Shown here in pieces: positions 4,263-30,352 of a DNA stretch of 32,000 nt; within the stretch, counting starts at the first letter, position 1; each line of letters begins with the position of its first letter. The stretch is from assembly GCF_019464535.1 (NCBI RefSeq), contig NZ_CP080507.1, positions 2,610,001 through 2,642,000 on the forward strand. Direction: 5' to 3'. Source of the DNA: Horticoccus luteus (lineage in GTDB: Bacteria; Verrucomicrobiota; Verrucomicrobiia; Opitutales; Opitutaceae). The translations under genes were made by a program, and so were the position numbers. The notes under the pieces were generated by a model, which saw only the letters and a list, made by a program, of their open reading frames with translations, was not told the DNA's origin and made no database searches.

Positions 4263-7200
4263 CTACAACTCGAACGTCGTCGTCAGGATGAACTGTCGGG
4301 GGTCGACTATTCGGTAGGCGCTGGGAGTGCCGTCGGGGAAGGCGCGGATCGGTTTCAGGCCCCCAGCCTCCTGCAGGTTCCGGACGTTAAAGCGTATCGC
4401 GACGCCGTATTTGTTGAAGATTTTCGTCTTATACCCGAGGAAGGCGTCAAAATAGAAATGTGCCCCATCCCAGATGGGATTGTCGGCATCGAGGTGCGTG
4501 ATCGGCTGGTTGTTCGCCAGCGCTTGCTGGTAGTTCTGACCATAATAACCGATGGCGCCTTTGTCCTCCCACCGCACCGCGCCACCGATGCTGAATTTCT
4601 TTGCGATGGCGTTGTCCGTGATGCCTTCCAACTGGAGGTTGGTGCTCAGCTTGAAGCCGTATCGACGCACCGCCGGTTGCGACTTGCCGAGGGTCTCGCG
4701 AATCACGCTGTAGGGCGCGTCGACAAAGCTCGCGTAGTTCGCCGCGGCCGTTTGGGAGCCACCATAGGTGGTATTGGTCCACCACAAGCGGTTGGCGCTG
4801 CCATCCGGCAAGGTCGCAAAGCGCGGGTCCTGAATCGTCGTCCAAAGCGGCAGACGTTCGTCGAGGTAATCTTGGATCGCGCCCGATACGTTTGTGTTCA
4901 CCGCTTTCGTCTCGTTGGCGTTGAAAGCGACGGTCCAGAAGTTCGTTGGGTTGTAGTTGATCTCGATTTCCACACCTTTGCCGGTGATGTCGTTGGTCGC
5001 CGCGAGGGTGCCGTTGCGATAGTTGTCGACGAGGGCGGCGTAGCGGGCCGGGTCCAACTTGATTTCTTTGAACACCTCGGCCTCCACTTGGTCGGGCGTC
5101 CAACTCGGATTCAGCGCTGTCACCCAATTGGTCGCCTGGGTGTAGAGTTTAAAGCCGTCGGACTGACCAGCATCAATGTCGTGGCGGAGCACGCGTTGGG
5201 CGATGGTGTTGGCATCGCCATCGCGCGCGTTGAACTGCGTGTTTTCGTATTTGTTGACGCGCACGACCAGCTTGCCGTCGAGCATGTTCAACCAGAAGCC
5301 GTAGTCCTTGCCCTTGCCCGTGGTGTTGGGCAGTGGCTGCAGCTTGAGATCCACGGCGGGAGGCGCGGGAATGAAGTTATCTGACTGGTTATAGGTAAAC
5401 GAGAGGCCTTGGAGGACCTCGCCGAAGAACCCTTTCGCGCCGCCCCCACTCTGCCAGCGCCGGACAAAGTCGAAATCGCGAAACGCGCGCACCACGACGC
5501 CGGCCGTTTGCGTGCGCCCACTGCTCGTGCGCCAGTCGGGCTGCCAACTGTTGATGCGGTCATAGTCGAAGACGGTGTTATCGGGGACGCCGGCGGCGGC
5601 GGCATCGGCGCCGGTCAGAAACCTCTGCGGGGTGGCACCGTTCTTCGAGTAAACCTTGTCGAGCCGGGCGCCGAATGTCGTGACGACTTTATCCTGAAGG
5701 AAGTGACTTTGGATCACGAAGCCCGGCGTCTTGATGATTTGCTTCAAATTGGCGGTGCCGCCAGTGCCATCAGTGGTGGGAAGCTGGCCGAGCGTGATCG
5801 GATCGTAGTGCCAGGAGCCGGTATTGCCCCACACGAAGGGATAAGTGCCGTAATTGTAGGAATGCGGCGCGTAGTCGACGTTGGTGCCGTTGGCATCGCC
5901 AACATAGTAGCGATAGAAGCCGCGCATGATATTGGGGCCGGCCTGCGGACCGCCCGCGATGCTGCTTTGATTGGCGCGCGCATAGTTGGGCACGATACCG
6001 CCGACACCGACAGCAGACCACGCGGTGTCCGAAGTCATGACATCGCGGTAAGCATATTGGCGGTTGATGCGGTATTTGTAATCCGCATAGGCGCTCATTT
6101 GATGCAGGCCGAGCCACTTGAGCCAGGTCGTCTCGTGCGTGAGATCGAGCGTATAAGCGAGCTGACCGCGATAGGTTTCCCACTTGGCGGGGGAAAGCGT
6201 CGTCCGCGGCTCAAGCACGCCGATGAAGGGACGGCCGAAGTTCGGGTTGGCGGTGCCGTCGAGGTTGCGGGTGTTGACGTCGACCCAGAGCTGGCCGGTC
6301 TGGCCGCTCGTGCCGGAGTTGCTGGCCGGCGTGCTCCGATAACGCTCGGCATCTTCCAGGAACAAGGCCGCGGAGGCCGCGAGCCGATGGCGTTCGGTGT
6401 TGAGCAGAATCTGATCGAGTTGCACGAGGTAGGTGTCCGTGCGATCGCCAAACTGATCGATGGAGGAAAGATTGATGCGCGACCAATCGTAGAGTTCCTG
6501 GCTGCTCGTGGTGGGGGTGGTGGTGAACAGCGGCTGGTTGTCAAAGCGGCCGGCCACCGTCGAAGGAAAGAGCAGCGAAGGGCTCGGTCCCATCAAACGA
6601 ACGGTGCCGGAGTTGGCGGCGGGACTGTTGCCAGTCGTGGAAATGGGCGCGGTCCAATACGTGATGCCGGATCCATCGACGAAGATGTTGCTCCGCTGAA
6701 AAGCGCCGCCCGACCGGCTGAAGAAATTCGGGAGGTTCACATCGGTGATCGGGAGGTTACTGCCGGCGATCGTCGTGGGGACGTTCGGATTGGTGGTCGC
6801 GTTGTAAGCGGGATTCGCGCCGTAGGTTTGGCCGTTCAGCGTATAGGTTTGGGTGACCGGGTCCCAACCGGGGCGGCCGGCTTGCACCCACGCAGAAACG
6901 TAATCGCGAGGCGTGGTGTTATTCGGCCGGTTGCCCACGCCGTAGTAGCGCAGGTAGGAGGCGGAGAGCGTCGTGCTCTTAAACGGGCGCCATTTGATCA
7001 TCGCATCGAGGCGCTTCGTATCGAAGCCGGACGGTTTGCGCAGGAAGCCATCGTGCTGATCGGCGCCGTTGATGCGGATGGCGAGCTTACCCTTCAGGAT
7101 CACCTGGTTGATGTCGAAGGTCGCGCGCCAACCATCGTAACTGTCGGCGCGAAGCTGGGTTTTGACTTTGGTCCGCGAGAGGTTCGCAGCGATCGGCACC

Positions 7201-7841
7201 TGATTGACGGTGCCGGAAGGGTTGCCGAGGCCGAAGACGTTGGCGTTGGGACCGCGACTGACTTCGATGCCGTCCACGATGAGCGGATCGATCGGCGTGC
7301 GGCCCATCATCTCGAAATTGCCATAGGAGATATTGGCCGACGCAATGCCACGCACGCGATTGGCGCCGTTGGGGTTGCCTTGGGAATTATCGGTCACCTG
7401 GCCGTTGCGATCGACCGTCACGTCCGTGTAGGTGCCACTGCCCTCGGTATTGCCGGTGTAGAGAAAGATATCGTTGATATCGATCATCGCGAAGTCGTCC
7501 ATCTGCTCCTTGGTGACCACCGAAATAGACGAGGCCAGGTCCTCGATCTTGGTGTTCAGGCGCGTGCCTGACATGGTGTTGGACGCGAAATAACCCTTCG
7601 TATCCGAAACGACTTCGAAGGGCGAAAGCACTTCGATTTCATCGCGGTGCTGCTCGGATTGCTCGGCACTTGATGCCACCGGCGGTGGCACCGCTGTGGG
7701 CAAAGGCGTGACGGGAGGGTGCTCATCGTGCGCGGGCGCGGCCGCGTCTTGCGCGACTGCGATCGAAACGGCGGCGGTGGCGAGGCAAACCGGAATCAGG
7801 ACCAGCCGGCCCAAAAAGCGAAGCGAAGGTTGCGGGGTCAT
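4263..7841 (-). CDS. TonB-dependent outer-membrane receptor (long, ~1190 aa type)
   Basis: Signal peptide (…CLATAAVSIAVAQD), a Pro-rich linker, then LSPFEVVSDTKGYFASNTMSGTRLNTKIEDLASSISVVTKEQMDDFAMIDINDIFLYTGNTEG, which is a plug-domain-like segment. A long Gly/Tyr/Asn/Thr-rich barrel-like body ends …LTTTFEL. Its ATG (7841-7839) overlaps the TGA (7840-7838) of the upstream giant ORF. Confidence 0.9.
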   Translation of the reverse strand: MTPQPSLRFLGRLVLIPVCLATAAVSIAVAQDAAAPAHDEHPPVTPLPTAVPPPVASSAEQSEQHRDEIEVLSPFEVVSDTKGYFASNTMSGTRLNTKIEDLASSISVVTKEQMDDFAMIDINDIFLYTGNTEGSGTYTDVTVDRNGQVTDNSQGNPNGANRVRGIASANISYGNFEMMGRTPIDPLIVDGIEVSRGPNANVFGLGNPSGTVNQVPIAANLSRTKVKTQLRADSYDGWRATFDINQVILKGKLAIRINGADQHDGFLRKPSGFDTKRLDAMIKWRPFKSTTLSASYLRYYGVGNRPNNTTPRDYVSAWVQAGRPGWDPVTQTYTLNGQTYGANPAYNATTNPNVPTTIAGSNLPITDVNLPNFFSRSGGAFQRSNIFVDGSGITYWTAPISTTGNSPAANSGTVRLMGPSPSLLFPSTVAGRFDNQPLFTTTPTTSSQELYDWSRINLSSIDQFGDRTDTYLVQLDQILLNTERHRLAASAALFLEDAERYRSTPASNSGTSGQTGQLWVDVNTRNLDGTANPNFGRPFIGVLEPRTTLSPAKWETYRGQLAYTLDLTHETTWLKWLGLHQMSAYADYKYRINRQYAYRDVMTSDTAWSAVGVGGIVPNYARANQSSIAGGPQAGPNIMRGFYRYYVGDANGTNVDYAPHSYNYGTYPFVWGNTGSWHYDPITLGQLPTTDGTGGTANLKQIIKTPGFVIQSHFLQDKVVTTFGARLDKVYSKNGATPQRFLTGADAAAAGVPDNTVFDYDRINSWQPDWRTSSGRTQTAGVVVRAFRDFDFVRRWQSGGGAKGFFGEVLQGLSFTYNQSDNFIPAPPAVDLKLQPLPNTTGKGKDYGFWLNMLDGKLVVRVNKYENTQFNARDGDANTIAQRVLRHDIDAGQSDGFKLYTQATNWVTALNPSWTPDQVEAEVFKEIKLDPARYAALVDNYRNGTLAATNDITGKGVEIEINYNPTNFWTVAFNANETKAVNTNVSGAIQDYLDERLPLWTTIQDPRFATLPDGSANRLWWTNTTYGGSQTAAANYASFVDAPYSVIRETLGKSQPAVRRYGFKLSTNLQLEGITDNAIAKKFSIGGAVRWEDKGAIGYYGQNYQQALANNQPITHLDADNPIWDGAHFYFDAFLGYKTKIFNKYGVAIRFNVRNLQEAGGLKPIRAFPDGTPSAYRIVDPRQFILTTTFEL

Positions 7842-10800
7842 GAGTTTTTAATGGAGCTGAGACGACGAGCGCCGCGAGATTGCAGCCACCGAGCGGCGGC
7901 CAAGAGAGAAAGGGCGAGGTAGAACCATGCACCCGGTGCACCACCTCCCCCACCGCCACTATCGCTGCTGCCGCCAACGCCACCGGAGGACGGCGGATTG
8001 TTGACGGTGAGCGTGGCCGCATTGCTGGTCACGGTGCCCTGGCTGTTGGACACAACGACCGTGTATTGCCCGGCGTTGGAGGCTTGAACGTTGGTGACGG
8101 TGAGCGTCGTGGACGTCCCCGAGCTGACCTGGTTGCCGTTGAAATACCAACGATACGTGGGCGCCGGCTGCCCGGTCGCGGCCACGAAGAACTGGACGGT
8201 GGCGCCGGCGGTGACTGACTGGCTTTGCGGCTGCGTCTGGATAATCGGCGCGTTCGGGAAGACGCCTTGGCGCACGGTTTGGTTGACCGTGTCGGCAATA
8301 TAGAACTCCCCGCTGGGCGCCTGAACGATGCCCGAGGGAAATTTGAACCGAGCCGCAGCTCCCACGCCATCGGCGCTGCCGAACGTGCCAGCCTGGCCAG
8401 CGACCGTGGTGACGACGCCACCCACGGACACAATCTTCCGGATGGTATGGTTGTCGGTATCGAGGACGAAGACGTTAAACGAGCCATCCACCGTCAGTGC
8501 TGACGGATGATTGAACCGCGCAGCGGTCGCGGTGCCATCGGCTGCGCCACTGCTGCCGGCAAGTCCGGCAATCGTCTTCACCACGCCGCCGGCGCTGACC
8601 GCGCGGATGGTGTTGTTCTCAGTATCGGCGACGTACAGGTTGCCATTGCGATCGACCGCGACGTCGGACGGCGCGTTGAAACGCGCTGCACTGCCCGTGC
8701 CGTCAACGGCCCCGGGTTGCCCCGCCAAACCGGCCACGGTGGTGACCTCCGTGGTCGCGAGATTCACTTTGCGAATCGTGTGATTATTGGTGTCCGCGAC
8801 GTAGAGGCTGCTGTTCGCACCATCGGAGTAAAAGGCGACGCCTTGCGGGCCGAAGAACCGCGCCGCCGCCGTGCCGTCGGCCGAGCCTGATGTGCCCGCG
8901 AGGCCCGCGAGAGTGGAAACACTGCCCGATACGGAAATCCTCCGAATCGTGTGGTTCAACGTATCCGCCACGTAAACATTGCCCGAACTATCGACGGTAA
9001 TCCCGGCGGGGGAATTAAACCGCGCGGTGGCGCCGGAGCCGTTGGCGGTGCCGGGGCTGCCGGCCGTGCCGGCAAACGTAGTCACCACCCCACCCGGTGC
9101 GATGCGGCGGATGACGTGGTTGTCCGTATCGGCAACGTAAATATTGCCGGTGGCATCGACGGCCACGGCCATCGGATCTCTGAACGTCGCCCCGGTGCCG
9201 GTGCCATCCGCGCTGCCCGCGGTGAGCACTTGTCCGGCGACCGTGGTGATCGTCATCGGCACGGCGGGTGCCGGCACGTCCTGCACGGAAAGCGTGAAGA
9301 CCTGGGTGGCGTCCGCGCCCGACCCATTGTGCGCGGTCAAGACGAGATGATAAATGGCGCCGACCGTCCCGTTGGGCGGCGTGCCCGCCAGAACACCCGT
9401 GGCGCTATTGAGCGTCACCCAATCCGGCAGGCCCGCAGCGGCGAACGTCGAAGCAGGAGCGCCGGAGGCGGTAATCGTGAACGAAGCGGGCAGACCGATC
9501 GTAAACGTAGTGCTGCTGGCACTCGTAATGACGGGTGCCTGACTGAGGGTTGGCGTCGCGGCCTCGATCACCGTCGAATTGGCGCTGGGGCCGACGTCGT
9601 TGTAGGCGCGCACGCGGTAATAGTAACTCGTGCCCGCGCTCAACCCGGCAATGTTGCGGCTCAAATTTGTGCCCACATCGAAGCCGTTGTAGCCATTGAG
9701 AAACGTGGCAAAAGAACTGTCCGTCGAAACATCAAGCAGGTAGCCCTGCGCGTTATCGACTGCGTTCCAGTGCGCGGTGAATCCGCCACTCGCGAGGTTC
9801 GTCGCCGGTTGCGCCACGGGCGCAGGGGGCGCCATCGGCGGAATCGTGACTGTCAACACCGCAGGCGTCGAGGTCGCGGCCCCCACCGCATTGGACACTT
9901 TCACCGTGTAACTTCCGGAATCGGCCACCACCACGCCCGTGAGCGTGAGGCTGGCGGTCCCGGTCCCCGACAAAGCGCCACCGTCGGCGAGATTTACTCC
10001 ATCCTTCTTCCACTGATAGCTCAGCGGAGCGGTGCCCGTCGCGACGACAGAGAGTGTGACGTTATCGCCTTGGAACGCCGCTTGCGACACCGATTGCGAG
10101 GTGATGAGCGGCGGCGTTTGCACGGCCAACGTCGCGCTCGCGCTGGTGACGGACCCGCCGTCGTTGGTCACGACCACCGCGTAATCCGCCGAATCCGCCG
10201 GCTGAACGCCAGTGAGCGTGAGCGTTGCGGTGCCGGTTCCGGAAACACGGCCACCATCGCCGAGGGCGTTGCCGTCCTTCGTCCAATGGTAGCTGAGCGG
10301 CGTGGCGCTGCTCGCCTCGACGGTCAGCGTCACTGTAGAACCAGTGGCCACCGTTTGGCTCACCGGCGGGGTGTTGATCGTCGGCAACGTGCCCGAAGTG
10401 CTGACTGACAATTGCGCGCCTTTGCTCGTCGATGAAACGGGTAGGCTGTCAGGGGCCAGCACGCTGCTCGCGGTGTTATAGCCGTCGAGCGTGTTGGCGA
10501 CGGTGCAGGTGTAGGCACCGGCGTTACCGTTGCGCGCGCCGGTAATCGTCAGCGTGGCGGATTGCGCACCGCTGACGACGGAGCCGTTGGACTGTGCGCC
10601 ATCGACCAAGGCGATGCCTTCGCGGCGCCATTGATAAGTGGGCGCGGTGCCGTTCACGCCGCTCGTGCCCGCCGCGACGACGGTGAACGTCGCGGTTTGC
10701 CCGGGCGCGATGGCTTGCGCGGCTGGCTGACCGGTGATCGCGAGTGCATTGGCCGTCGTCAAACCGGTGAAGCTCGTCGTGCCGGAGTATTGCACGTCAG

Positions 10801-13800
10801 CGACGTTGTAGAGTTCGAGGCCAGGTCCGCCGGCAATGCTGACGTTGTTCAACGACACATTACTGATCAGGCCGTTCGCGAGCGGCAGCCCCCAGATGAT
10901 GCTATACCCACTGGCGCCGGTCGCGGTGAGATTGTTGATGGCGATATTTTTCCAAACCGAGACGGTGGCCGCCGCCAGTGGGTTGGGCGGCGTGACATTC
11001 CAAGCTTTGACCTTGGTCGGCGTGGTCTGATTACTCCCGGAAGTCGCTCCGGGATTTCCGACTTGGTTGTAGTAACTATAGAAGACGATGGGATATTGAA
11101 CGTTTGTCATCGTGATATCCGAATACGTCAGATTTTGCACGACGCCGCCCTGGGTGGCATCCGCCTTGAGGCGCAAGCCGCTGGTGGTGCCGTTAAACGT
11201 GCAGCGCAATACCGTGAGGCCGTCGAGGCCGAGATTGGTCTGACCACCGACGGACAAACCGTGGCCGGTGCCAAAGGTGCAATCGGCGACGGTGATGTTA
11301 CTGCACGGTCCGTTGGCGGCTTTGATGGCGATGTTGTCATCGCCGACCGAAATCGTGCAGTTTTGGATCAAGACATTAGTCGCGGTCGGGTCGACGCCGT
11401 CGGTGTTGGGCGACGACGAAGGCGCCGTGACCGTGAGGCCGAAGATGGTGACGTTGGAATTGCTGGTGCCGCCGCTCCCGCTCATCGCGAGGTGAAACTG
11501 CGGCGAGTTTTGCAACGTGATACCGCTCACCAGAACGTTGGCCGCCCGCGTGAACTGCAGCAGGCGGGGGCGGCTGATCGTGCTATCGTTGTTATACGCC
11601 GTCCACCATGCAGCACCGTCACCTTCGATGACGCCATTGCCGGTGATCGCAATATTCGTCGCCCCACTCGCGATACTGATGAGATCGGCGGGCGAAGTCG
11701 TGCTATTGGGATAGGTGCCATACGGCAACGCGCGCAAGATGGCGCCCCCGTCGATCTGCAGATTCATGTTGCTGCGCAGCGTCAGCGGTCCGGTCAGATA
11801 CGGGCTCGCCGCCGCCGGGATTTCGATGGTGCCGCCGCCAGCCGCCTGTGCCGCGTTGATCGCCGCCTGGATGGACGCCGTGTTATTGGTGGTGCCATCG
11901 CCGACCGCGCCATAATCCACGACGTTGAATACGCCTGCGGGGATGATCGGTTGCGTGGGCAACGTCGCCGAGGCCGGCGCGACGGTCGTCAGAACCGCCG
12001 TGGCGCTCGTCGTGGTGCCGCCGCCGTTGGTGACGCCGACGGTATAGTTGCCACCGTCGCTCGAGTCGAGGCCGGTCAACGTAAGGGTCGAGGCGGTCGC
12101 ACCAGCGATGTCGGACCCGCTTTTTTTCCATTGATAGGACAGCGGGCCGACGCCTGTCGCGAAAACACTCAGGCTGACGCGAGAGCCGAGCAAAGCCGAT
12201 TGCGTGAGCGGCTGCACGACGATCGCCGGCGGCGGCGCCGTCACGGTCAACACCGCCGCATCGCTCGTCACCGTGGTCACGCTGTTGGTGACGTCCACGG
12301 TGTAGGAACCGGCGTCGCCATTCTGCAAATTCGCGACGGCGAGCGTGGCCGTCGCCGATCCGGTGATGCGCGCATTATCACTGAGCGCGACGCCGTCCTT
12401 CTTCCATTGATAAGTGATCGGCGTGCTGCCGGTCACCGCGACCGAAAAGCTGGCGCTCGTGCCGGCAGCGAGGGTTGCCGATTGCGGTTGCGCGGTGATC
12501 GTCGGGGCCACCGGAGCCGAACTGACGGTCAGCGTCGCCACCGTACTCGCTACGGAGGCCGCGGCGTTCGTGACAACAAGTTTGTAATCGCCGGAATCCG
12601 CAAGTTGGACGCCGGCGAGAGTCAGCGTGTCGGTCGTGGCGCCGGAGATGATCCCACCGTCGTTCAAATCGACATTGTTTTTCTGCCACCGGTAGCTCAA
12701 TGGGGCGCTGCCTGTCGCCGCCGCGCTCAAAGTCACTGTCGCCCCCACCGTGGCCGATTGTGTGGCGGGCTGCGTGGTGAAGACGGGAGGCGCAGCCAGC
12801 TTTGTGACATGTAAATCGAGAATGCTCGGCGCCGGGCCGTAGGAGGAGTAGAACATCAGCGAATCGAAACTCGCGACGACCGGACCGGAGGTCTGGCTAT
12901 ACGAGTAGGTCATCACCGTCGTGCCACCGCTCTTGACCGTGTAGCTGAGGTCGATCTCCGAAGCCGAAACGTAAGTTATATTGAATGTCGCGGTATAGAC
13001 AGTTGTCGCATCATTCAGGATCGCCCCGGCCGTGCCGCCGCCCGAGCCGAGCAGACCGAATGTCCCGGTGGCCGCCAGATCGGTCGACGTGGGACCGATA
13101 ATCTGGGTGCTGCCGCTCGCGGCGACAGAGGTGCCGGTGCGCGTCCAGAAGGATAACGTATCGGTGGAAGCGGTGGTGGCGGCTTTGGTATCGATAATAT
13201 AACCCGAGTAGCCCCGCGCCGTATTGCCGGTCGGCGTGCCGGTCAGGCTGTTGGACGTGGCGGGAGCGTAGCGCGCGGAAATCGTGGCGGCGGCGTCATT
13301 GGTGGCGGCGCCATTGCCGCCGCTGTTCAAAAGCGCGAGACGGAAGTTGCCAGGATTTTCGGCCGGAGTGGACGCTCCGAAAACGAATGTCACATTGGCC
13401 GAGAGCGTTTCGCCGAGCCCCAACGAAATCGGTGCCGCGGACGGCGCGAAGTAGGCCATCAGGCCGCGCGTGCTCCCCGAGGATGTGCCGAGCGAAGTGC
13501 CGGGCTTGTAAGCGATGTTCGCAGTGCCAAACGACACCCAAGGCGCTTGCGTGGCGGTAGGCGTAAGGAAACCGTTGGCATCGGTCGCGAGACCGGCGTT
13601 TACCGCGGCGGCGGTCACGGCATCGTGGACGACGGTCACGCCGGCGGGTGCGGCGAGCGTGGTCGCGCTCACGGTGTTGGAAGCGGCGGTTGCCAAGCTG
13701 CCGTTAACGGCGCGCACGCGATAGAAGTACGTCGAAGTCGCGGCCAAACCGGTGACCGCGGAAGAGGTGACGTTGCCCACATCCAAATTCTGAAATCCGC

Positions 13801-16800
13801 TGACGAACGCGGTGAACCCGCTGTCCGTCGCCACGTCGAGCTGGTAAGTCGTGGCGCCGCCGACGGCGCTCCAGTTGGCCGTGAAGTGGCTCTCGGTGAC
13901 GAGGGTGGCCGCGCTGGCCGTGGGCGGACTTTGGACCGTTAAGGTCGCGTCGGCGCTGGTGACCGTGCTCGGCGCAGCGTTGGAGACGTCGACCGTGTAA
14001 ACCCCCGCGTCGCCCGCAACGGCGTTGGTGATGGTCAACGTATTGGTCGAAGAGCCGGCGATGTGTCCGGCGCTGTCACTGACGACATTGGTGTCTTTCT
14101 TCCAGACATAGGTGAAAGGTCCAGTGCCGGAAGCGGCCACCGTGAAGGTCACCGTGCCGCCGGCGTTGACGGCCTGGCTGGCTGGCTGCGTAGCGATGGT
14201 GACCGCCACCGCGCCTGCGGTTACGGTCAATGTCGCGGGATCGCTCGTGACCGATCCGGCGGCGTTGGTCACGACCACTTCATAAGCGCTGTTCGAGTCC
14301 GAGAGTTGTACATTGGTCAACACGAGCGAAGCCGAGGTTGCGTTGCCAATTTCGACAAAAGCCCCCGCCCCCACCCGCTTCAGCCATTGATAGCTGAGCG
14401 ACGTGGAACTGGTGGCGGCGACGGTGAAAGTCACATTGCTGCCGATGGTCACGGACTGACTCGCCGGCTGCGTCGTGATCGAGACCGGGGCTGGTGGCGT
14501 GGCGACGTTGATGGTGTTCGACGAGGCGCTGGTTCCATCGGTGTTCACCGCGCGCACACGATAATAGTACGTAGTGTTGTCGCTGAGGCCCGTGATGGCC
14601 TGCGTGAGGACATTGCCGACGTCGCGATTAGCGTAGCCGCTTACAAAACTGCCAAAGAATTCGTCTGTGGAAACATCGAGGCGGTAGCTCGTGGCGCCTG
14701 CGCCCGCGCTCCAGTTTGCCGTAAACCCGGCGGTGCTGGGGCCAGTGGCCGCCGTCGCCACCGGCGCAGCAGGAGGAGAGGTCACCGTCAATGCGACCGA
14801 ATCGCTCGAAGCGGTGCCGCCGGCGTTGGAAACCGCCACAGTGTAGTTGCCGGTGTCGCCGGAGACGGCGTTGCTGATCGTCAACGTGTCGGTGGTCGCG
14901 CCCGCGATATGTCCCGCTTCGTCGACCAGATCGACCCCGCCCTTGGCCCATTTGTAGCCGAGAGGAGCATCGCCGGTTGCGGCGACGGTGTAGGTGACCG
15001 TCGCACCCGCCGCCACGGACTGGCTTCCGGGCGAGGGCTCCGTCGTAATGCTCGGCGCGACGACTGTCGTCGTGTAAGTGACGTCAAAGAGGCGAAAGTC
15101 GATCGTGGTGGCCGTCAAAGCCGCGGAGCTGGGCCGTACATCGAACGTATCGAACGTGAAGGTGCTCGGGCTGGGGTCGCTATATGAAACGCTCGCGCTG
15201 CCGGTATCGTTGAAGGTGCCGCCGGACATCGTCGCCACGATATCGAGCGTATTCGGCGTGCCCGCGATGCGCGTAAAGGTGATGGTAAACGTATAATCGG
15301 TGCCATCGTCGTAGCCGTGGACATTCTTCGGCGCGCCATTGGCGAGGGCAGTCCAGTTCCCGGAAGTCCCGAGCAAGTTGCCCGCCACTCCGGCGCCCAA
15401 CGCCCACTTTCGCAATTGGAACGAATTACTATTCCCGAGCGAGGCGCCCATGTTCATGAACATCGCGTAGCCGGTGTAAGCGGCCGACGGAATGCTGCCA
15501 TCCGCGGTGACGCGCGAGTCCGCCGGCGCTTGGGCCACCGCCAGGTTAAACCCTTGGCTGGAATTGGTGGCGTTCACGCCCGTCGTCCTGAACACCCATT
15601 TGAGCGTCATGCTGTCGCCCGCCTTCGCGAGCGTGACCGGAGTCGCCGCGGGCGTGAAGTAGGTGAAAAGCGTTTGGGACGCGGTGTCCTCGGTGGCGGT
15701 CATCGCACCGGAACTCACAGTGAGAGTGCCCACGCCGCCTTGAAACCACTGTGATTCGAGATCGCCGTCGCTATCGGCATCCGTCCCCTTTACGCCATTG
15801 TTCTCGGCGTAGCCGTCCGTGGCGCTTGGGTCGGTGCGGGTGCCATCCTGCCACGTGTCGTGCACGAGCGCGGTCGTAACCTGGGCGCGCAAGGTGGCGG
15901 CGCTGCCGGCCAACACCAAGACAGCGGCGAAGATGAATAACGTGGAGTGACGCATGAAAGAGAACCTCCGCTCGCGTCGCCGGCTCAGCCAGCGGGCGGC
16001 GGCCGCGACGACCAGCGCGAAGTAGAACCACCAGCCCGGTGCGCCGCCGCCACCGCCGGGCAGGCTCACCGGCGGCGCCGACGTGGCGGTGACGACGAGG
16101 CCGGCGGAATTACTCGTGACGCTCCCCAGCGAGTTGGTGACCACGACGGTGTAATCACCCGCGTTCGCGGCGGAAGCGGCGCTCACCGTATACGTGTCGC
16201 TCGTGGCATTCGGAACCACGTTGCCGTTCAAATACCACTGATACGTGGGCGCCGGACGGCCGGTGGCTTTGACCGTGAACTGAGCGCTGGCTCCGCTCGC
16301 CACGGACAGGCTTTGCGGGTGGGTGACGATGACCGGCCCATGCGGCACACCCGCGGAGCGCACGGTGTTGTTGTCGGTATCGGCTATATACAGATCGCCC
16401 GCCGAATTGACAGCGATGCCGCCTGGTGAGTTGAAGCGTGCCGCCGTGCCAATGCCGTCGACACTGCCGGGTTTGCCGGCCTGCCCGCCGACAGTCGTGA
16501 CGACGCCAAGGGCGGAAACGATTTTGCGCACGGTGTAATTGTCGGTATCGACGACATAGACGTTGAACGCGCTGTCGACCGTGACGCCATAAGGATGATT
16601 GAAACGCGCTCCCGCGCCGGTGCCATCGGCGGCGCCGGTGCTGCCCGCCAAACCGGCGAGCGTGGTCACCGCGCCATCGGGCGTGACGAGGCGGATGGTG
16701 GCATTATCCGTATCGGCGACGTAAACATTGCCGTTGGCGTCGACCGCCACTCCGTAAGGCGCATCGAAGCGTGCCGCGCCGCCCACGCCATCAACGCTGC

Positions 16801-19681
16801 CCGGCTGGCCCGAAAACCCCGCCAGCGTGCTGACGGTCCCGGACGCGAGCACGATTTTGCGCACCGCATGGTTGTTGGTGTCGGCGATAAAGAGATTGGC
16901 GCCGGTCGCGTCGAGCGCGAGGCCCTGTGGCCAGGAGAATCGGGCGGCGGCGTTCGTGCCGTCCGCGCTGCCAGCCTGCCCCGGCGAACCGGCGATCGTC
17001 GTCACGGCACCCGCCGCGGTGACTTTGCGGATGATGTGATTGAGCGTGTCAGCCACATAGACGTTGCCTGCGGCATCGACGGCGATGCCGGATGGCGCGT
17101 CGAAGGTGGCCGCGGTGCCGGCGCCATCGGCGCTACCCGCGACGCCCGCCTTCCCCGCCAGCGTCGTGACCACGCCCGCCGCGGTTATTTTGCGAATAGT
17201 ATGGTTGCCAGTATCGGCCACGTAAGCGGTGCCGCCTCCGTCAACCGCGATGGCCGCGGGGTGATTCAAACGCGCGGCGGCGCCCGTCGCGTCGGTCGTG
17301 CCGACGGATCCCGCGGTGCCAGCGAGCGTGGTGACAGTCAACGGTTCGCCCGCGGATGGGACCGCTTGGACGACGAGCGTGAAAATCTGGGTGCCGTTGG
17401 GCGATTTGTCGTTCTGCGCGGTGACATTGAGTGTGAACGTCGTCGAGCTCAGCCCTGCACCGATGGTGCCCGCCGGGGGCGTGCCGCTCAACACGCCGGT
17501 CTGCGGATTGAGCGTCGCCCAAGCCGGGAGTCCGCTCGCGGTAAACGTCGGCGGCGGGGCGCCCGTCGCGGTAAACGTAAAGGTGCCGGGGACGCCTTCG
17601 GTGAAGGTCGTGCTCGCCCCACTCGTGATCTGCGGCGCCACAGGCGGCTGCACGCGCACCAAGATGGTATTGGAGCTCCCGCTGGTGCCGCTGCTGTTAT
17701 AAGCCCGCACGCGATAATAGTAATTGGTATTGATCGCCAGGCCGCCCACGTCGTCGCTCAAAACCGGTCCGACATCGAGATCTTGGAAGCCCGCGACGAA
17801 GCTGCCAAAGCCGGCATCGGTCGCCACGTCCAGGCGATAGCCCGTCGCGTTGGCCACACTGTCCCAGCGCGCGGTGAACCCGTTTTCGTTGATATTGCGC
17901 GCCAGTTCGGCGACCGGCGCGGCCGGGCGGGGCGCGGCATTAACGGTCACCTGCGCGGCCGAGGATGTCACTTGCGCGGCAAAATTGGCGACAGTCAGCG
18001 TATAGCTGCCGGTTTCATCGAGGCGCACGCTGTTCAATGTCAGCGTCGCTGTTGCGCTGCCGGAGGTGCGGCTGTCATCCGCCAATGCCACACCGTCTTT
18101 ATACCATTGAAAAACAAACGGTGGCGGACCGGACACCGTGGCGGCGAGGACAACGGTCGCGCCTTCAAAGACGGTTTGCCCCGTCGGCTGCGTATCAATT
18201 GCTGGCGGAGTCGCGGGAAAAACACCGAGCGTGGCCGCGGCACTCGTCACGCTCCCATATGAGTTCGTGATCGTCACCGTGAACGTTCCGGCATCCGTGA
18301 GCTGAGCGCCCGTGATCGTAAGCGTCGCGGTCGTCGCGCCGGAATAGACGCCACCGTCGCTGACCGGTGTGCCGTCTTTGCTCCAGACGTAAACGAGTGG
18401 CGGCGCCCCTTGCACGCCGACGGTGAACGACGCTGTCTGGCCTTCGAAAATCGTATGGTCGGGCGGTTGCGTGGTGATGACCGGTGCCGTCAGCACCATC
18501 AGCGTGGCCGCAGCGCTGGTAACGGAACCGGCGCTATTGCTCACGACCACGGTGTAGCTGCCGCTATCGGCCGGCTGGACATTGGTCAAAGCGAGTGTCG
18601 CGTCCGTGGCGGCGTCAATGGCCACACCATCTTTCTTCCATTGATAACTCGGCGTCGGTGCGCCCGTCGCGACTACGGAGAAATTGACCGCAGTGCCGGC
18701 CGGTGCCGTCTGGCTGGCCGGATCGGTGGTGATCGTCGGCGAGATCGAGGTGCGGGAGATAAGAAAATCGGTGACGGCCAGCGACGCATTATAGGTCGAG
18801 AGGATCATGAACGTATCGAAACCCACGAGCGGTGTGTCGGATGTTTCCGTGACCGCGTAGGTCATCACGGTGGTGCTGCCACTCGTGACCGAATACGAAA
18901 GCGCCATTTGCTTGTCGGCGACGCGACGCACGGAGAACTGGGCGACATACGAAGTGCCGTCGTTGGCGATCGCACCGACCGTGCCGCCGCCCGCACCGGG
19001 CAGCAACTGGCTGAAGGCCGAGTTGGTCGCGAGATCGCTGGATGTCGGTCCGAGCCACTGCTGACTGCGGCCCGGCGCCCCATCGCGACGCCAGAACGCG
19101 AGCGAATTGGTCGACGGCGTCGGAGAAGCCGTCGAGTCGACGATATACGCGGAGTAGCCACGCGGGGTGTTGCCGCCGCTCGTCAAACTAAAGTTGTCCG
19201 CAATCACGCGGGCCGCCGGCGGCAGTTCGCCATCAGGGCGGGGATTGGCGCTGGCGCCGTCGTTGACCGCCCGGCCGTTGCCGCCGCTGTTGAGAAACGC
19301 GAGGCGGAAGTCCCCCGTGCTGGACGCGCCGGAACCTCCCGAATAGTTAAACTTCACGGTCGCCGTGAGCGTTTCTCCCACTGCCAGTGATGCGACCGTG
19401 GTCGACGGCGTGAAGTAGGCCATCAATCCACGATTGCCGGCCGACGCGCCGACCGAGGCGTTTTGATTATAGACCAAGGCGGCGCCGCCTGCATACCAAA
19501 CGGCTTGGGTGGCGGTCGGCGCACGGAAACCGTTCGCGTCGACATCGAGGCCGGCATTGGCGGCCGGCGCAGCGAAAGTGTCGTGCAAGATGGGCGTCGT
19601 CACGGTCGCCGCTGAAAGAGCGGTGGCAGCGCCCAGCAAGGGCAACGAAACCAGCGAACGAAAAAAATTGGACATACTCAT
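7838..19681 (-). CDS. giant multidomain surface protein (3947 aa): Ig-like / FN3 / He_PIG-like / NHL beta-propeller / GH28-like beta-helix, with a C-terminal membrane-anchor-type sorting signal; apparently two gene architectures fused in frame
   Basis: A single open frame of 3948 codons. Signal peptide MSMSNFFRSLVSLPLLGAATALSAA. About 14 Ig-like units carry the motif (Y/F)xW(K/Y)K(D/N)G…(D/N)(S/A)G.Y(T)V.V(S/T)N. Four FN3 units follow GFTA.W….GY.LDV(A/S)TD..F…Y(Y/F)YRVRA.N. There are two LP.W.TLN..TGVL(S/A)GTPP units (He_PIG-like). Two sets of six NHL blades read (F/L)N.P.G(I/V)AVD..GN(V/L)YVADT.NH.IRK(I/V). The GH28 motifs are listed separately below. The terminal GGGGGGAPGAWFYLALSLLAAARWLQSRGARR is a Gly run, a TM helix and a basic cluster. 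Confidence 0.9.
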   Translation of the reverse strand: MSMSNFFRSLVSLPLLGAATALSAATVTTPILHDTFAAPAANAGLDVDANGFRAPTATQAVWYAGGAALVYNQNASVGASAGNRGLMAYFTPSTTVASLAVGETLTATVKFNYSGGSGASSTGDFRLAFLNSGGNGRAVNDGASANPRPDGELPPAARVIADNFSLTSGGNTPRGYSAYIVDSTASPTPSTNSLAFWRRDGAPGRSQQWLGPTSSDLATNSAFSQLLPGAGGGTVGAIANDGTSYVAQFSVRRVADKQMALSYSVTSGSTTVMTYAVTETSDTPLVGFDTFMILSTYNASLAVTDFLISRTSISPTITTDPASQTAPAGTAVNFSVVATGAPTPSYQWKKDGVAIDAATDATLALTNVQPADSGSYTVVVSNSAGSVTSAAATLMVLTAPVITTQPPDHTIFEGQTASFTVGVQGAPPLVYVWSKDGTPVSDGGVYSGATTATLTITGAQLTDAGTFTVTITNSYGSVTSAAATLGVFPATPPAIDTQPTGQTVFEGATVVLAATVSGPPPFVFQWYKDGVALADDSRTSGSATATLTLNSVRLDETGSYTLTVANFAAQVTSSAAQVTVNAAPRPAAPVAELARNINENGFTARWDSVANATGYRLDVATDAGFGSFVAGFQDLDVGPVLSDDVGGLAINTNYYYRVRAYNSSGTSGSSNTILVRVQPPVAPQITSGASTTFTEGVPGTFTFTATGAPPPTFTASGLPAWATLNPQTGVLSGTPPAGTIGAGLSSTTFTLNVTAQNDKSPNGTQIFTLVVQAVPSAGEPLTVTTLAGTAGSVGTTDATGAAARLNHPAAIAVDGGGTAYVADTGNHTIRKITAAGVVTTLAGKAGVAGSADGAGTAATFDAPSGIAVDAAGNVYVADTLNHIIRKVTAAGAVTTIAGSPGQAGSADGTNAAARFSWPQGLALDATGANLFIADTNNHAVRKIVLASGTVSTLAGFSGQPGSVDGVGGAARFDAPYGVAVDANGNVYVADTDNATIRLVTPDGAVTTLAGLAGSTGAADGTGAGARFNHPYGVTVDSAFNVYVVDTDNYTVRKIVSALGVVTTVGGQAGKPGSVDGIGTAARFNSPGGIAVNSAGDLYIADTDNNTVRSAGVPHGPVIVTHPQSLSVASGASAQFTVKATGRPAPTYQWYLNGNVVPNATSDTYTVSAASAANAGDYTVVVTNSLGSVTSNSAGLVVTATSAPPVSLPGGGGGAPGWWFYFALVVAAAARWLSRRRERRFSFMRHSTLFIFAAVLVLAGSAATLRAQVTTALVHDTWQDGTRTDPSATDGYAENNGVKGTDADSDGDLESQWFQGGVGTLTVSSGAMTATEDTASQTLFTYFTPAATPVTLAKAGDSMTLKWVFRTTGVNATNSSQGFNLAVAQAPADSRVTADGSIPSAAYTGYAMFMNMGASLGNSNSFQLRKWALGAGVAGNLLGTSGNWTALANGAPKNVHGYDDGTDYTFTITFTRIAGTPNTLDIVATMSGGTFNDTGSASVSYSDPSPSTFTFDTFDVRPSSAALTATTIDFRLFDVTYTTTVVAPSITTEPSPGSQSVAAGATVTYTVAATGDAPLGYKWAKGGVDLVDEAGHIAGATTDTLTISNAVSGDTGNYTVAVSNAGGTASSDSVALTVTSPPAAPVATAATGPSTAGFTANWSAGAGATSYRLDVSTDEFFGSFVSGYANRDVGNVLTQAITGLSDNTTYYYRVRAVNTDGTSASSNTINVATPPAPVSITTQPASQSVTIGSNVTFTVAATSSTSLSYQWLKRVGAGAFVEIGNATSASLVLTNVQLSDSNSAYEVVVTNAAGSVTSDPATLTVTAGAVAVTIATQPASQAVNAGGTVTFTVAASGTGPFTYVWKKDTNVVSDSAGHIAGSSTNTLTITNAVAGDAGVYTVDVSNAAPSTVTSADATLTVQSPPTASAATLVTESHFTANWSAVGGATTYQLDVATDSGFTAFVSGFQNLDVGNVTSSAVTGLAATSTYFYRVRAVNGSLATAASNTVSATTLAAPAGVTVVHDAVTAAAVNAGLATDANGFLTPTATQAPWVSFGTANIAYKPGTSLGTSSGSTRGLMAYFAPSAAPISLGLGETLSANVTFVFGASTPAENPGNFRLALLNSGGNGAATNDAAATISARYAPATSNSLTGTPTGNTARGYSGYIIDTKAATTASTDTLSFWTRTGTSVAASGSTQIIGPTSTDLAATGTFGLLGSGGGTAGAILNDATTVYTATFNITYVSASEIDLSYTVKSGGTTVMTYSYSQTSGPVVASFDSLMFYSSYGPAPSILDLHVTKLAAPPVFTTQPATQSATVGATVTLSAAATGSAPLSYRWQKNNVDLNDGGIISGATTDTLTLAGVQLADSGDYKLVVTNAAASVASTVATLTVSSAPVAPTITAQPQSATLAAGTSASFSVAVTGSTPITYQWKKDGVALSDNARITGSATATLAVANLQNGDAGSYTVDVTNSVTTVTSDAAVLTVTAPPPAIVVQPLTQSALLGSRVSLSVFATGVGPLSYQWKKSGSDIAGATASTLTLTGLDSSDGGNYTVGVTNGGGTTTSATAVLTTVAPASATLPTQPIIPAGVFNVVDYGAVGDGTTNNTASIQAAINAAQAAGGGTIEIPAAASPYLTGPLTLRSNMNLQIDGGAILRALPYGTYPNSTTSPADLISIASGATNIAITGNGVIEGDGAAWWTAYNNDSTISRPRLLQFTRAANVLVSGITLQNSPQFHLAMSGSGGTSNSNVTIFGLTVTAPSSSPNTDGVDPTATNVLIQNCTISVGDDNIAIKAANGPCSNITVADCTFGTGHGLSVGGQTNLGLDGLTVLRCTFNGTTSGLRLKADATQGGVVQNLTYSDITMTNVQYPIVFYSYYNQVGNPGATSGSNQTTPTKVKAWNVTPPNPLAAATVSVWKNIAINNLTATGASGYSIIWGLPLANGLISNVSLNNVSIAGGPGLELYNVADVQYSGTTSFTGLTTANALAITGQPAAQAIAPGQTATFTVVAAGTSGVNGTAPTYQWRREGIALVDGAQSNGSVVSGAQSATLTITGARNGNAGAYTCTVANTLDGYNTASSVLAPDSLPVSSTSKGAQLSVSTSGTLPTINTPPVSQTVATGSTVTLTVEASSATPLSYHWTKDGNALGDGGRVSGTGTATLTLTGVQPADSADYAVVVTNDGGSVTSASATLAVQTPPLITSQSVSQAAFQGDNVTLSVVATGTAPLSYQWKKDGVNLADGGALSGTGTASLTLTGVVVADSGSYTVKVSNAVGAATSTPAVLTVTIPPMAPPAPVAQPATNLASGGFTAHWNAVDNAQGYLLDVSTDSSFATFLNGYNGFDVGTNLSRNIAGLSAGTSYYYRVRAYNDVGPSANSTVIEAATPTLSQAPVITSASSTTFTIGLPASFTITASGAPASTFAAAGLPDWVTLNSATGVLAGTPPNGTVGAIYHLVLTAHNGSGADATQVFTLSVQDVPAPAVPMTITTVAGQVLTAGSADGTGTGATFRDPMAVAVDATGNIYVADTDNHVIRRIAPGGVVTTFAGTAGSPGTANGSGATARFNSPAGITVDSSGNVYVADTLNHTIRRISVSGSVSTLAGLAGTSGSADGTAAARFFGPQGVAFYSDGANSSLYVADTNNHTIRKVNLATTEVTTVAGLAGQPGAVDGTGSAARFNAPSDVAVDRNGNLYVADTENNTIRAVSAGGVVKTIAGLAGSSGAADGTATAARFNHPSALTVDGSFNVFVLDTDNHTIRKIVSVGGVVTTVAGQAGTFGSADGVGAAARFKFPSGIVQAPSGEFYIADTVNQTVRQGVFPNAPIIQTQPQSQSVTAGATVQFFVAATGQPAPTYRWYFNGNQVSSGTSTTLTVTNVQASNAGQYTVVVSNSQGTVTSNAATLTVNNPPSSGGVGGSSDSGGGGGGAPGAWFYLALSLLAAARWLQSRGARRLSSIKNS
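10760..11935 (-). other. GH28-type (polygalacturonase-like) right-handed beta-helix catalytic domain embedded in the giant ORF
   Basis: The N-terminal cap VFNVVDYGAVGDGTTNNTASIQAAINAA is followed by the four GH28 signature segments in the canonical order: NTDGVD, VGDDNIAIK, GTGHGLSVGG and SGLRLKA. Domain borders are approximate. Confidence 0.75.
15881..16057 (-). other. internal junction: complete C-terminal-type sorting signal, then GGAGG + ATG + signal peptide in the same frame with no stop codon
   Basis: …PGGGGGAPGWWFYFALVVAAAARWLSRRRERRFSF | MRHSTLFIFAAVLVLAGSAATLRAQ…. The ATG at 15955-15953 is codon 1243 ((19681-15955)/3 = 1242). GGAGG at 15969-15965 lies 9 nt upstream of that ATG. Confidence 0.7.
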
Positions 19682-27182: not shown

Positions 27183-27186
27183 ACCA

Positions 27187-27762
27187 ATGCCTCAAATCTC
27201 CAGCTTTATGAAAACCACCATCATCACCACTCCAAGCGAAGCGATAGCGGCCCTGCGTAGCTACTTTGTGCGAAATAGCGTCACCGCGTTCGACGAGAGT
27301 TCCACGCTGCGTCTCTCCTTCCGTGCCCGCGTGAACGGTTCGGTAATCGCTGTGACGGCCGTTGCTGAACCGCCGATCCCTCGTCTGGTCCTTCTCACGC
27401 GTATTCTTTGCCCTATCGGTGATGCGGTCGATGGCCCTGCTGAATTCTGTAATTTCCTCAATTTGCGCTGCACGTTCGCTTCGTCGTTCATCTCGGACGA
27501 TCCCCGCGAATTCACTTTCGAGAGCGTACTGCATTTGGGCGATGGCATGTGTCTCGCGGCGCAGCTCACCACCTTCGCCGACGGTCACATGGCGGCCGTT
27601 TCGCGCCTGGCCCCCTTGCTCGAGGCATTCGCCCAGCAGCGGATAGGACGACGCGAAGCCGAAGCTTGGTTGTGTCCCACGGAAACCGCCACCGAAGATT
27701 CGCCTGTGCTAAAGGAGCTCGAACGCGATCAGGAGCGCGCCTCCAAGCCAGGCCGCAACTGA
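27187..27762 (+). CDS. hypothetical protein, possibly YbjN / secretion-chaperone-like fold
   Basis: Track ORF 26980..27762 trimmed to the ATG at 27187, 5 nt after the helicase stop, since the upstream part overlaps the helicase. The 191-aa protein alternates beta and alpha patterns (…AIAALRSYFVRNSVTAFDESSTLRLSFRARVNGSVIAVTAV…LVLLTRIL…FCNFLNLRCTFASSFI…FTFESVLHL…). This is reminiscent of YbjN-type domains. The acidic C-tail is an additional feature. The fold assignment comes from memory of the pattern only. Confidence 0.55.
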   Translation: MPQISSFMKTTIITTPSEAIAALRSYFVRNSVTAFDESSTLRLSFRARVNGSVIAVTAVAEPPIPRLVLLTRILCPIGDAVDGPAEFCNFLNLRCTFASSFISDDPREFTFESVLHLGDGMCLAAQLTTFADGHMAAVSRLAPLLEAFAQQRIGRREAEAWLCPTETATEDSPVLKELERDQERASKPGRN

Positions 27763-28055
27763 ATTGCTGTTAGCAGAGTCCGCATTTATCTCTCGTCGCC
27801 ACGGCCTTGCCGCCATATCACGAGCACTCTTCGCCCTTTGGCCCGACACTTCGTTTGTGCGGCATGAACAACAGCTCGAATAGCTCAACTTCTGCATTGT
27901 TGCGTCCCAAACAGCTCGACTTGGATAGCGATCAGCGAGAACTGCTCCGCGCACTTCGGCAAAGGTCGCCATACAATATCAAAACAGGAACCACTTAGAG
28001 GCGTTCATCCTCGAATGGATGGCCTTCAACGCCCTCTGCGAGGCGGCATAGGGGG

Positions 28056-28718
28056 ATGATGCTTGGCGATGCTCCGCAAAGCTTGAAGGGTTCAGGCCAT
28101 CTATCGCTGCTCGCAGATAAACAGCCTTTGACCGGTCGCTTTGTGCGGGGTCAAAGTCACGCCGAGATTCAGATCGATCCTCCGGCTGATTTGTCGATCG
28201 CGCTTCAAGAGCGCCGAGTGGAGTTCTTGATTTATCGGGCTTACATGGAGGAACTGCCAAAGTGGTTGAACTCGCGGTGCGGTCAGATAATCTCAATCGG
28301 AGCTGACGACGTCGGGCTACTCGTGAAAGCGAATGTCACCCGCCAACAGCTCGATGCCGAACTCAAACCGAATCCGCCAGCTGCGGGCGGTGAGCGGGAG
28401 GACGGGGTTCCAACCAACGGCGTCAGCAATCCCGAGGTGAATGGGGCGGTCGACATCGTGTCGAACGCGGCGCAAACGCCATCCCTGCGTCGCTACCACG
28501 GCACCGTTGAGCTGGACACCATGCGCGTAGGCCGCGATGCGAGCCGGGGCGCCGACGAGGTAATCGCTCACTTGGCCGCTCAGCTCGGATCGGAAGTAAC
28601 TGTGCGACTAGAAATCGACGCACACCTGCCCAGGGGCGCGAGTGACCAGCTGGTCCGAATCGTCACCGAGAATGGCCGAACCTTGAAGTTCGAGAGTCAC
28701 GGCTTTGAGAAGGAGTAG
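28056..28718 (+). CDS. hypothetical protein; possibly a surviving C-terminal fragment of a larger gene
   Basis: 220-aa ORF. The last ~80 aa (RRYHGTVELDTMRVGRDASRGADEVIAHLAAQLGSEVTVRLEIDAHLPRGASDQLVRIVTENGRTLKFESHGFEKE) form a well-structured module. I believe it resembles the extreme C-terminus of large DUF499-type defence ATPases, but this is unverified memory. The N-terminal half and the 290 bp upstream look degraded. Confidence 0.45.
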   Translation: MMLGDAPQSLKGSGHLSLLADKQPLTGRFVRGQSHAEIQIDPPADLSIALQERRVEFLIYRAYMEELPKWLNSRCGQIISIGADDVGLLVKANVTRQQLDAELKPNPPAAGGEREDGVPTNGVSNPEVNGAVDIVSNAAQTPSLRRYHGTVELDTMRVGRDASRGADEVIAHLAAQLGSEVTVRLEIDAHLPRGASDQLVRIVTENGRTLKFESHGFEKE

Positions 28719-28785
28719 GAAATCGGCAATGAGGCGCGGTGGGGCGGTCGATGGAGATATCGGTGCGCTCGGGATCGCTCCAAAG

Positions 28786-30132: not shown

Positions 30133-30352
30133 GTGCGTCCCGTTCCGCTCCTCCCGTTATCGAGGGGTCGAACGTCAGTATACCGTTGGCTTTGTCGCCG
30201 ACGAAGCTGTGGAGGACCGCTCTTCGGGAGTCGTGGTCGGCGCAAGCCTCGGCGAAGCCGAGCATCACCGGGGTCAGTGCATCGCCGTATAGCAGGCCAA
30301 TCCCACTGTTGAACGCCGGGCAATTGGGCACTCGACATCAGGTATAGCGCGC

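Follow-up and report, generated by a model that had tools for sequence, protein, structure and literature searches.

An old in-frame fusion of two tandem surface-protein genes in Horticoccus luteus, probably acting as a secretory polyprotein

The signal peptidase of the host separates the glycoprotein precursors of flaviviruses and bunyaviruses at signal peptides within the chain, and among bacteria the cytochrome b-c1 precursor FbcH of Bradyrhizobium japonicum is said to be cleaved at an internal signal peptide as well, a result attributed to Thony-Meyer, James and Hennecke in PNAS in 1991. Two products can also be obtained from one gene through in-frame internal starts, as for IF2 alpha/beta, ClpB, and the long and short forms of CheA. 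Our search of the literature on bacterial polyproteins with internal signal peptides and on FbcH returned nothing usable. A different kind of signal, the GlyGly-CTERM/rhombosortase signal, combines a Gly-containing motif that lacks Cys with a transmembrane helix and a basic cluster (Haft and Varghese 2011, PMC3237569), and members have been reported in Opitutus terrae, which like Horticoccus luteus belongs to the Opitutaceae (PMC3237569). Here we describe a locus of H. luteus in which two such themes meet: within a stretch of 32 kb (the window, to which all coordinates refer unless another locus is named), a single giant open reading frame (ORF) joins two surface-protein genes, so that the anchor tail of the first product (module A) runs directly into the signal peptide of the second (module B). 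The giant ORF and its junction lie on the minus strand, and the features on which the argument rests are as follows.

7838-19681, minus strand: giant ORF, 3947 codons, uninterrupted (read from the sequence)
19604-19681, minus strand: N-terminal signal peptide of module A, MSMSNFFRSLVSLPLLGAATALSAAT (direct reading of the sequence)
15956-19681, minus strand: module A, residues 1-1242 (domain scan, and orthology to the separate 1263-residue genes of loci L080 and L083)
16034-16057, minus strand: Gly-rich signature motif of tail A, GGGGGAPG (tail alignment)
15986-16033, minus strand: hydrophobic helix of tail A, WWFYFALVVAAAARWL, the predicted first arm of a hairpin, N-out/C-in
15956-15985, minus strand: basic cluster and junction, SRRRERRFSF, where relatives have a stop codon and a spacer of 50-86 nt
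15965-15969, minus strand: GGAGG, 9 nt 5' of the internal ATG
15953-15955, minus strand: internal ATG, the counterpart of the gene B start codon in split relatives (orthologue comparison)
15884-15955, minus strand: internal signal peptide, MRHSTLFIFAAVLVLAGSAATLRA, with a predicted signal peptidase I site LRA↓Q (then QVTT; the arrow marks predicted cleavage here and below), the predicted second arm of the hairpin
7841-15883, minus strand: mature module B, residues 1267-3947 (domain scan and homology)

The original prediction, made from the sequence of the window, held that a complete sorting signal at codons ~1209-1242 lacks a stop codon and continues into an ATG and a signal peptide, and this is what we found. 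Residues 1209-1242 (15956-16057) read GGGGGAPGWWFYFALVVAAAARWLSRRRERRFSF and make up a complete anchor tail, namely GGGGGAPG, a hydrophobic helix (Kyte-Doolittle 2.05 over 12 residues of WWFYFALVVAAAARWL, followed by SRRRERR), and the basic RRRERR. There is no in-frame stop, and the codon right after tail A is ATG (15953-15955). Across the junction the protein reads ...RRFSFMR, HSTLFIFAAVLVLAGSAATLR, AQVTT, in which SRRRERRFSF together with MRHST forms a loop of 15 residues with a net charge of +5. The internal segment has the positive n-region (MRH), hydrophobic h-region (STLFIFAAVLVLAGSAA, Kyte-Doolittle 2.91), and cleavage region with small residues at -3 and -1 (TLRA↓Q) that are expected of a Sec signal peptide. 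We assigned the cleavage site from the -3/-1 rule and homology, which places the predicted mature N-terminus of module B at Q1267, QVTTALVHDTWQDGTR. Homology points the same way, as gene B of L080, L083, P0403, and P0281 is a separate ORF starting MSK(S/F)KLL and carrying a signal peptide that ends in A↓A or A↓Q. The internal signal peptide is followed by a DTWQDG-type domain (LVHDTWQDGTRTDP...), a family that normally starts 3-6 residues past an N-terminal signal peptide and whose members are either proteins of ~315 residues or the N-termini of large immunoglobulin (Ig) proteins; small homologues of this N-domain of module B carry PF07589. With this homology for the signal peptide, and with the conserved family to which the tail belongs (below), neither element at the junction is a chance look-alike.

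The other reading frames were also considered. The original prediction had found no nearby stop in either of them, which is correct for the +2 frame (none within 150 nt) and incorrect for the +1 frame, where TGA occurs 30 nt and ~111 nt upstream of the internal ATG. These TGA codons are without consequence, as frame 0 encodes the tail right through its Arg cluster, and we reject a frame-slipped stop.

To place the junction in its evolutionary context, we collected loci from relatives using orthologues of the TonB-dependent receptor gene downstream of the giant ORF as a synteny anchor, together with a 2400-residue query of the giant protein, and this yielded six informative relatives. Queries for identical sequences with the giant ORF, the TonB receptor, and the helicase of the window gave no match, and the source of the window was recognised by homology. 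A scan of genome contigs for relatives gave matches of at most 47% identity, and a metagenome scan, whose search patterns were generic Ig peptides, gave no close relative. The DNA of the junctions did not align in MAFFT over the deletion described below, and we compared the junctions codon by codon. The loci that define the comparison are these:

L167, fused: Logan SRR30542735, ORF of 3947 residues, junction ...RWLARSPRARSMIMRKVSWIVVFVALVGGASVLRA↓QNYM
L079, fused: Logan SRR28740811, junction ...RWLTRRVQTSSMSKVSLFVAILAVIAGVPALRA↓QNYM
L166, fused: NCBI metagenome-assembled genome (MAG) GCA_018239845.1, ORF of 4141 residues, junction ...RWLSRRPALLRRVAGSRFLSLAVLLGLALLPVAAHA↓QPVI
L080, split: ENA ERZ27245349 k141_53332, gene A ends ...RWFVRRSRR and TGA, spacer of 86 nt, gene B start ATGAGCAAG, MSKSKLLSLAF...
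L083, split: Logan SRR28678124, gene A ends ...TAA, spacer of 50 nt, gene B start ATGAGCAAG

The original prediction had proposed such a comparison of orthologous loci, and it gave a clear answer: there is no stop at the junction in L167, L079, or L166, while L080 and L083 have both a stop and a spacer. The two split loci share with H. luteus the gene order (gene A, gene B, TonB receptor, and a ~310-residue protein, with a TPR protein too in L080), the same tail family on A and B, and the same B start region (ATGAGCAAG, MSK...), and they differ from it in the stop codon (TGA or TAA) and the 50-86 nt spacer between A and B, both of which the H. luteus clade lacks. Their gene A encodes 1263 residues and their gene B 2691-2917, and MSK(S/F)KLL is also the N-terminus of three more gene-B proteins encoded separately. 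The correspondence extends to the start codon itself, as the internal ATGAGCAAA of L079 is the orthologue of the split gene-B start and ATGAGCAAG is common to L080, L083, and the fused L079. In both of our neighbour-joining trees, one built on the last 1000 residues of B and the other on the first 250 residues of the receptor, the four fused loci (H. luteus, L167, L079, and L166) form one clade, with split L080 and L083 outside it. Two separate genes are thus the ancestral state, and the simplest history that these sequences suggest is a single in-frame deletion of stop and spacer in the common ancestor of the four fused lineages. As the fusion is shared by a clade of four lineages with flanking protein identity down to ~62-68%, it is old, and as a spacer of 50-86 nt is missing along with the stop, the change was not a point mutation. 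The suggestion of the original prediction that stop loss had fused paralogues of 1242 and 2705 residues therefore stands as far as the fusion goes (modules A and B are 51% identical over 973 residues, and the outgroups have two genes), and fails for its having been recent, given that four lineages share it.

These comparisons also bear on the idea that the junction is an error, whether a missed stop, an indel, or the collapse of duplicated cassettes during assembly, or else a pseudogene confined to one genome. The H. luteus locus is known from a single genome record and the giant ORF is internally repetitive, as this idea would have it. However, the same stop-less junction is present in SRR30542735, SRR28740811, and GCA_018239845.1, which come from different samples and pipelines, the DNA repeats inside the giant ORF do not exceed 78% identity or 300 nt in length, and both halves of the ORF are intact and obviously constrained. 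With four independent assemblies in agreement, an artefact, which the original prediction had listed among its readings, is effectively refuted. A collapse between cassettes in particular is implausible at a repeat identity of 78% or less.

The residues at the junction are only about half conserved among the four fused loci, and the physical layout that they encode is conserved in all of them. Each fused junction has a first helix of 16 residues, a loop of 13-15 residues with a net charge of +3 to +5, a strongly hydrophobic second segment (Kyte-Doolittle 2.5-3.1), and, ahead of Q, an A in position -1 with either L or A in position -3. At the level of sequence, this arrangement of stop-transfer helix, cytoplasmic loop, and signal peptide is found in every fused orthologue (four of four) and again in three junctions of unrelated loci, described below. 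This conservation bears on the possibility that the fusion is a plain one with relic signals, in which the 3947-residue chain would remain uncut, either held by a permanent two-helix hairpin in the inner membrane between two periplasmic lobes or not inserted at all. In its favour, cleavage at the junction is a prediction, and giant multi-domain Ig/NHL proteins of 3000-7000 residues are common in these bacteria. Relic signals should decay, yet all four lineages, with sequences ~50% diverged, still have the hydrophobic core, a positively charged loop, and the residues expected at -3 and -1, and we consider an uncut chain distinctly improbable.

How much of module B might be made by a separate initiation event is a more serious question. 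The original prediction had pointed to GGAGG 9 nt upstream of the internal ATG; the motif is indeed there (15965-15969), but it consists of the Arg codons CGG AGG of the basic cluster and loses its force as a Shine-Dalgarno (SD) argument, since it is present in H. luteus only (it is absent from L079, L167, and L166) and the clade is SD-poor. Of 24 clade starts examined, an SD-like tetramer occurs in only three of the 22 others, and their upstream regions are pyrimidine-rich. An SD-led internal start would have a motif 5-10 nt away that is conserved and typical of the genome, which is not the pattern seen here, and we reject a functional SD at the internal ATG. As a more general observation, starts in this clade are almost never preceded by an SD motif, and ATGA is a frequent start context (window positions 2999, 4176, 7841, 19681, 24464, 24516, and others, and also in L079, L080, and L083).

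The mRNA could still behave as a two-gene message, with most of module B initiated at the internal ATG and the read-through fusion a minor, tolerated by-product. Three of the four fused lineages still have the ATG, which is the orthologue of the genuine gene B start, its pyrimidine-rich context (ttctctttcATG) resembles that of other starts in this SD-poor clade, GGAGG lies at -9 in H. luteus, and the folding energy around it (-12.9 kcal/mol, against -18.5 +/- 5.3 for the gene body, i.e. about one standard deviation less structured) falls within the range of other real starts (-1.3 to -16.3). On the other hand, the true start of the giant ORF is much more open, at -4.3 kcal/mol, ranking in the top 0.1% of windows compared with the top 10-14% for the internal ATG, SD motifs are near-absent from the 24 clade starts, GGAGG is missing from the three fused orthologues, and L166 has GTC in place of the ATG. 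Since every ribosome translating A must continue into B, the fusion product would be made regardless. L166 has lost the ATG and kept the signal peptide and an AHA↓Q site, so B there most simply depends on read-through from A, which argues that internal initiation is dispensable. We therefore regard internal initiation as the main source of B as unlikely, though it is the strongest of the alternatives.

We favour the reading in which the fused pair of tandem genes, both for sorted surface proteins, probably acts as a secretory polyprotein cut by signal peptidase I. An ancestor of H. luteus and at least three related lineages lost, by in-frame deletion, the stop of gene A (~1250 residues) together with the short spacer that separated it from gene B (~2700 residues). 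In the proposed scheme, module A would be carried through Sec by its N-terminal signal peptide until the helix of tail A halts translocation (N-out, C-in), the Arg-rich loop would be kept in the cytoplasm following the positive-inside rule, and the former B signal peptide would re-insert (N-in/C-out) and restart Sec translocation, this time of module B. Cleavage by signal peptidase I after LRA↓Q would then give the same two mature proteins as in split relatives, except that A would be anchored by a two-helix hairpin, which a rhombosortase-like enzyme would remove if it cleaves at the Gly motif. Both products would have a GlyGly-CTERM-like tail of their own, available for sorting at a later stage, and initiation at the retained internal ATG may supply extra B without being required. 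Because processing of this kind would yield the products of the split relatives, loss of the stop would be tolerated while the signal-peptide features remain constrained. The polyprotein with internal processing and internal initiation that the original prediction had offered thus fares well in its first part, where the hairpin and signal-peptidase site are conserved, and poorly in its second, where the initiation signals are not conserved and the folding is unremarkable.

Several points weigh against this reading. Retention of the ATG in three of four fused lineages and a folding energy inside the range of real starts mean that internal initiation could be the main source of B, and even in L166 translation could begin at a TTG that lies four codons before the position of the lost ATG. 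With only 13-16 residues, the helix of the tail may stop transfer weakly. Membrane topology, cleavage, and the involvement of a sorting enzyme are predicted from sequence, the cleavage site by the -3/-1 rule and homology, and the model assumes that a sorting enzyme would accept a tail that is not C-terminal.

Outside the H. luteus clade we found three further junctions of a tail with a signal peptide (L009, L008, and L085). In Ereboglobus sp. PH5-10 (L009, ~10848-11514), a tail-bearing protein of ~2200 residues continues in frame into the signal peptide of a TonB receptor (...APSAWYLAALAIGAFMYRFRRRGPALFALMLGVAVFTASTDLSAQA↓A), and in an Ereboglobus MAG (L008, ~15475-17134) a tail-bearing giant is likewise fused in frame to a TonB receptor, via a loop of 27 residues. 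The downstream parts of both contain CarboxypepD_reg and Plug domains, and the two loci are collinear across the junction at 40% identity; they could represent either one old event or two separate ones. Two inverted repeats, both short and rich in GC, lie in the translated spacer of L008 (15540-15620), namely CACGGGC..GCCCGTG and CACGGGCG..CGCCCGTG; they may be what is left of a hairpin or terminator once located between the genes. A TonB receptor works in the outer membrane and would be nonfunctional if tethered to the inner one; the receptor in L008 and L009 must leave its inner-membrane anchor in order to function, which counts for the cleavage reading and against an uncut chain. In the third case, the uncultured contig L085 (4001-15315), three paralogues stand in tandem, of which the first and second are joined as P0274 (2493 residues, ...AWFVFALTSLAMIRRRIPRVRAALLALLPVLAFG↓Q) and the third is set apart by an ATGA overlap, each NHL/Ig/RCC1 module having its own signal peptide and tail. 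Plain read-through extension of a tail without a signal peptide occurs only twice in our sample (P0030 and L109). At these loci the distance from the tail to the next start is -4 to +21 nt, and at such spacing a small indel or a stop substitution would readily yield a fusion. A broader proposal, that read-through from tail to signal peptide is recurrent and selectively maintained in the Opitutaceae, giving secretory polyproteins that pass through successive Sec hairpins, are separated by signal peptidase I, and carry sorting signals that work internally, is one we put forward with considerable doubt.

The tail itself belongs to a well-conserved family that our analysis brings to light in the Opitutaceae and that is captured by no current model. 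An alignment of 33 homologues gives the consensus GGGGGGAPSxWF, followed by ~13 hydrophobic residues, R..RR, and a short run to the stop. In the sequences that we gathered, a hidden Markov model built from the tail alignment recovered 59-68 distinct tails lying no more than 30 residues from the end of their protein, and in 13 of 13 tabulated locus tails the stop falls 2-13 residues past the basic pair. Measured against the description of GlyGly-CTERM (PMC3237569), tail A (GGGGGAPG) and tail B (GGGGGGAPG) both have the Gly motif, and tail A has the hydrophobic transmembrane stretch followed by basic residues; an extreme C-terminal location is seen for tail B and the 59-68 homologous tails, and not for tail A, after which 2705 residues follow in frame. 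The tail therefore shares the tripartite plan of GlyGly-CTERM and differs from it in that the H. luteus tails match no named model and tail A is not C-terminal. Searching tails A and B against NCBIfam at E<=10 gave no sorting-signal model, TIGR03501 included (the best match was NF058595 at E=0.11, below its cutoff), and a Pfam scan gave no sorting-signal match either; models of the TIGR03501 type are reported to miss divergent GlyGly-CTERM members (PMC3237569). The tails are not PEP-CTERM/exosortase signals, as they have no Pro-Glu-Pro motif and no match to PF07589/TIGR02595. No rhomboid gene was found within the 32-kb window, the part of the 4.32-Mb genome that was searched for a rhombosortase (TIGR03902). 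JGI calls some Opitutaceae members of this tail family MYXO-CTERM despite their having no Cys.

In the NCBI annotation the giant ORF appears as one 3945-residue "immunoglobulin domain-containing protein" (QYM77807.1 / WP_220160911.1) that begins at the second ATG. Module A consists, in order, of the signal peptide, an N-domain, four Ig I-set domains, FN3, He_PIG, an NHL beta-propeller, Ig, and the anchor tail. Module B (2705 residues) has the signal peptide, the DTWQDGTRTDP-type N-domain, an Ig/FN3 array, a second N-domain of the module A type, GH28, an Ig/FN3/He_PIG/NHL/Ig series, and the tail, and its late part is collinear with most of A. The remaining features are as follows.

10991-11788, minus strand: GH28 polygalacturonase-like domain within module B (domain scan)
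7841-7957, minus strand: tail B, GGGGGGAPGAWFYLALSLLAAARWLQSRGARRLSSIKNS, in the usual terminal position and followed by TGA at 7838-7840 (sequence and tail alignment)
4263-7841, minus strand: TonB-dependent receptor, with a start codon that shares bases with the stop ending the giant ORF (ATGA), 100% identical to H. luteus protein P0121

The start of mature module B differs among the fused loci. The ~300 residues after the internal signal peptide (~15060-15883, minus strand) are almost wholly different between H. luteus and its closest fused orthologue L167 (4216-5000), with a DTWQDGTRTDP-type domain in the former and an NYMLNTF... domain in the latter, while the rest of module B is collinear between them, at 65% identity over the aligned first 1127 residues and 84% over the last 1000. 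In L079 the DTWQDG-type domain is located deeper in B. Together these sequences suggest a domain swap at the mature N-terminus of module B.

Beyond the giant ORF, giant neighbouring proteins in relatives (L080 17951-23513 and L083 15539-23558) contain pectinesterase and Pel9A-like domains, and the locus looks like a pectin-utilisation cluster around the TonB receptor, the ~310-residue protein, and the TPR protein. Elsewhere in the window (24516-31381), a DEAD/ResIII helicase (888 residues), a Macro-domain protein (448 residues), and a SIR2_2-domain protein (342 residues) occur together, a composition resembling that of a defence island.

If secretory polyproteins of this kind exist, one chain would comprise a surface enzyme or binding protein and its paralogue, or even its TonB receptor, which would give fixed stoichiometry and co-localised delivery. 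H. luteus would then offer, in a cultured isolate, a natural bacterial case in which Sec translocation, once halted by a stop-transfer helix, starts again at a signal peptide inside the chain and cleavage by signal peptidase follows, a sequence of events otherwise known mainly from viral polyproteins and engineered constructs. The locus also illustrates a near-neutral route for fusing genes of secreted proteins, and the reverse splitting is perhaps possible as well. For annotation, we caution that an entry for a giant "immunoglobulin domain-containing protein" may in some cases stand for two mature proteins, and that sorting-signal models demanding a C-terminal position will miss internal copies.

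Among the known systems, IF2, ClpB, and CheA resemble this locus in that an in-frame ATG within the long H. luteus ORF could yield a shorter product, namely module B alone. Their two products share the C-terminal part of one protein, whereas the H. luteus start is a relic of a separate secreted protein and appears dispensable in L166. By analogy, we consider FbcH and the viral envelope polyproteins to be the closest precedents. The viral precursors have alternating stop-transfer and signal sequences and derive several ectodomains from one chain, as we propose here, but they enter the eukaryotic endoplasmic reticulum and evolved as polyproteins, in contrast to a bacterial chain that owes its origin to the loss of a stop between two autonomous genes. 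FbcH is likewise one bacterial ORF with a transmembrane segment, a cytoplasmic loop, and an internal signal peptide, and its cleavage gives two envelope proteins. Those are a membrane protein and a periplasmic cytochrome of one complex, whereas in H. luteus two huge sorted surface proteins are joined by way of a sorting signal, with cleavage predicted between them.

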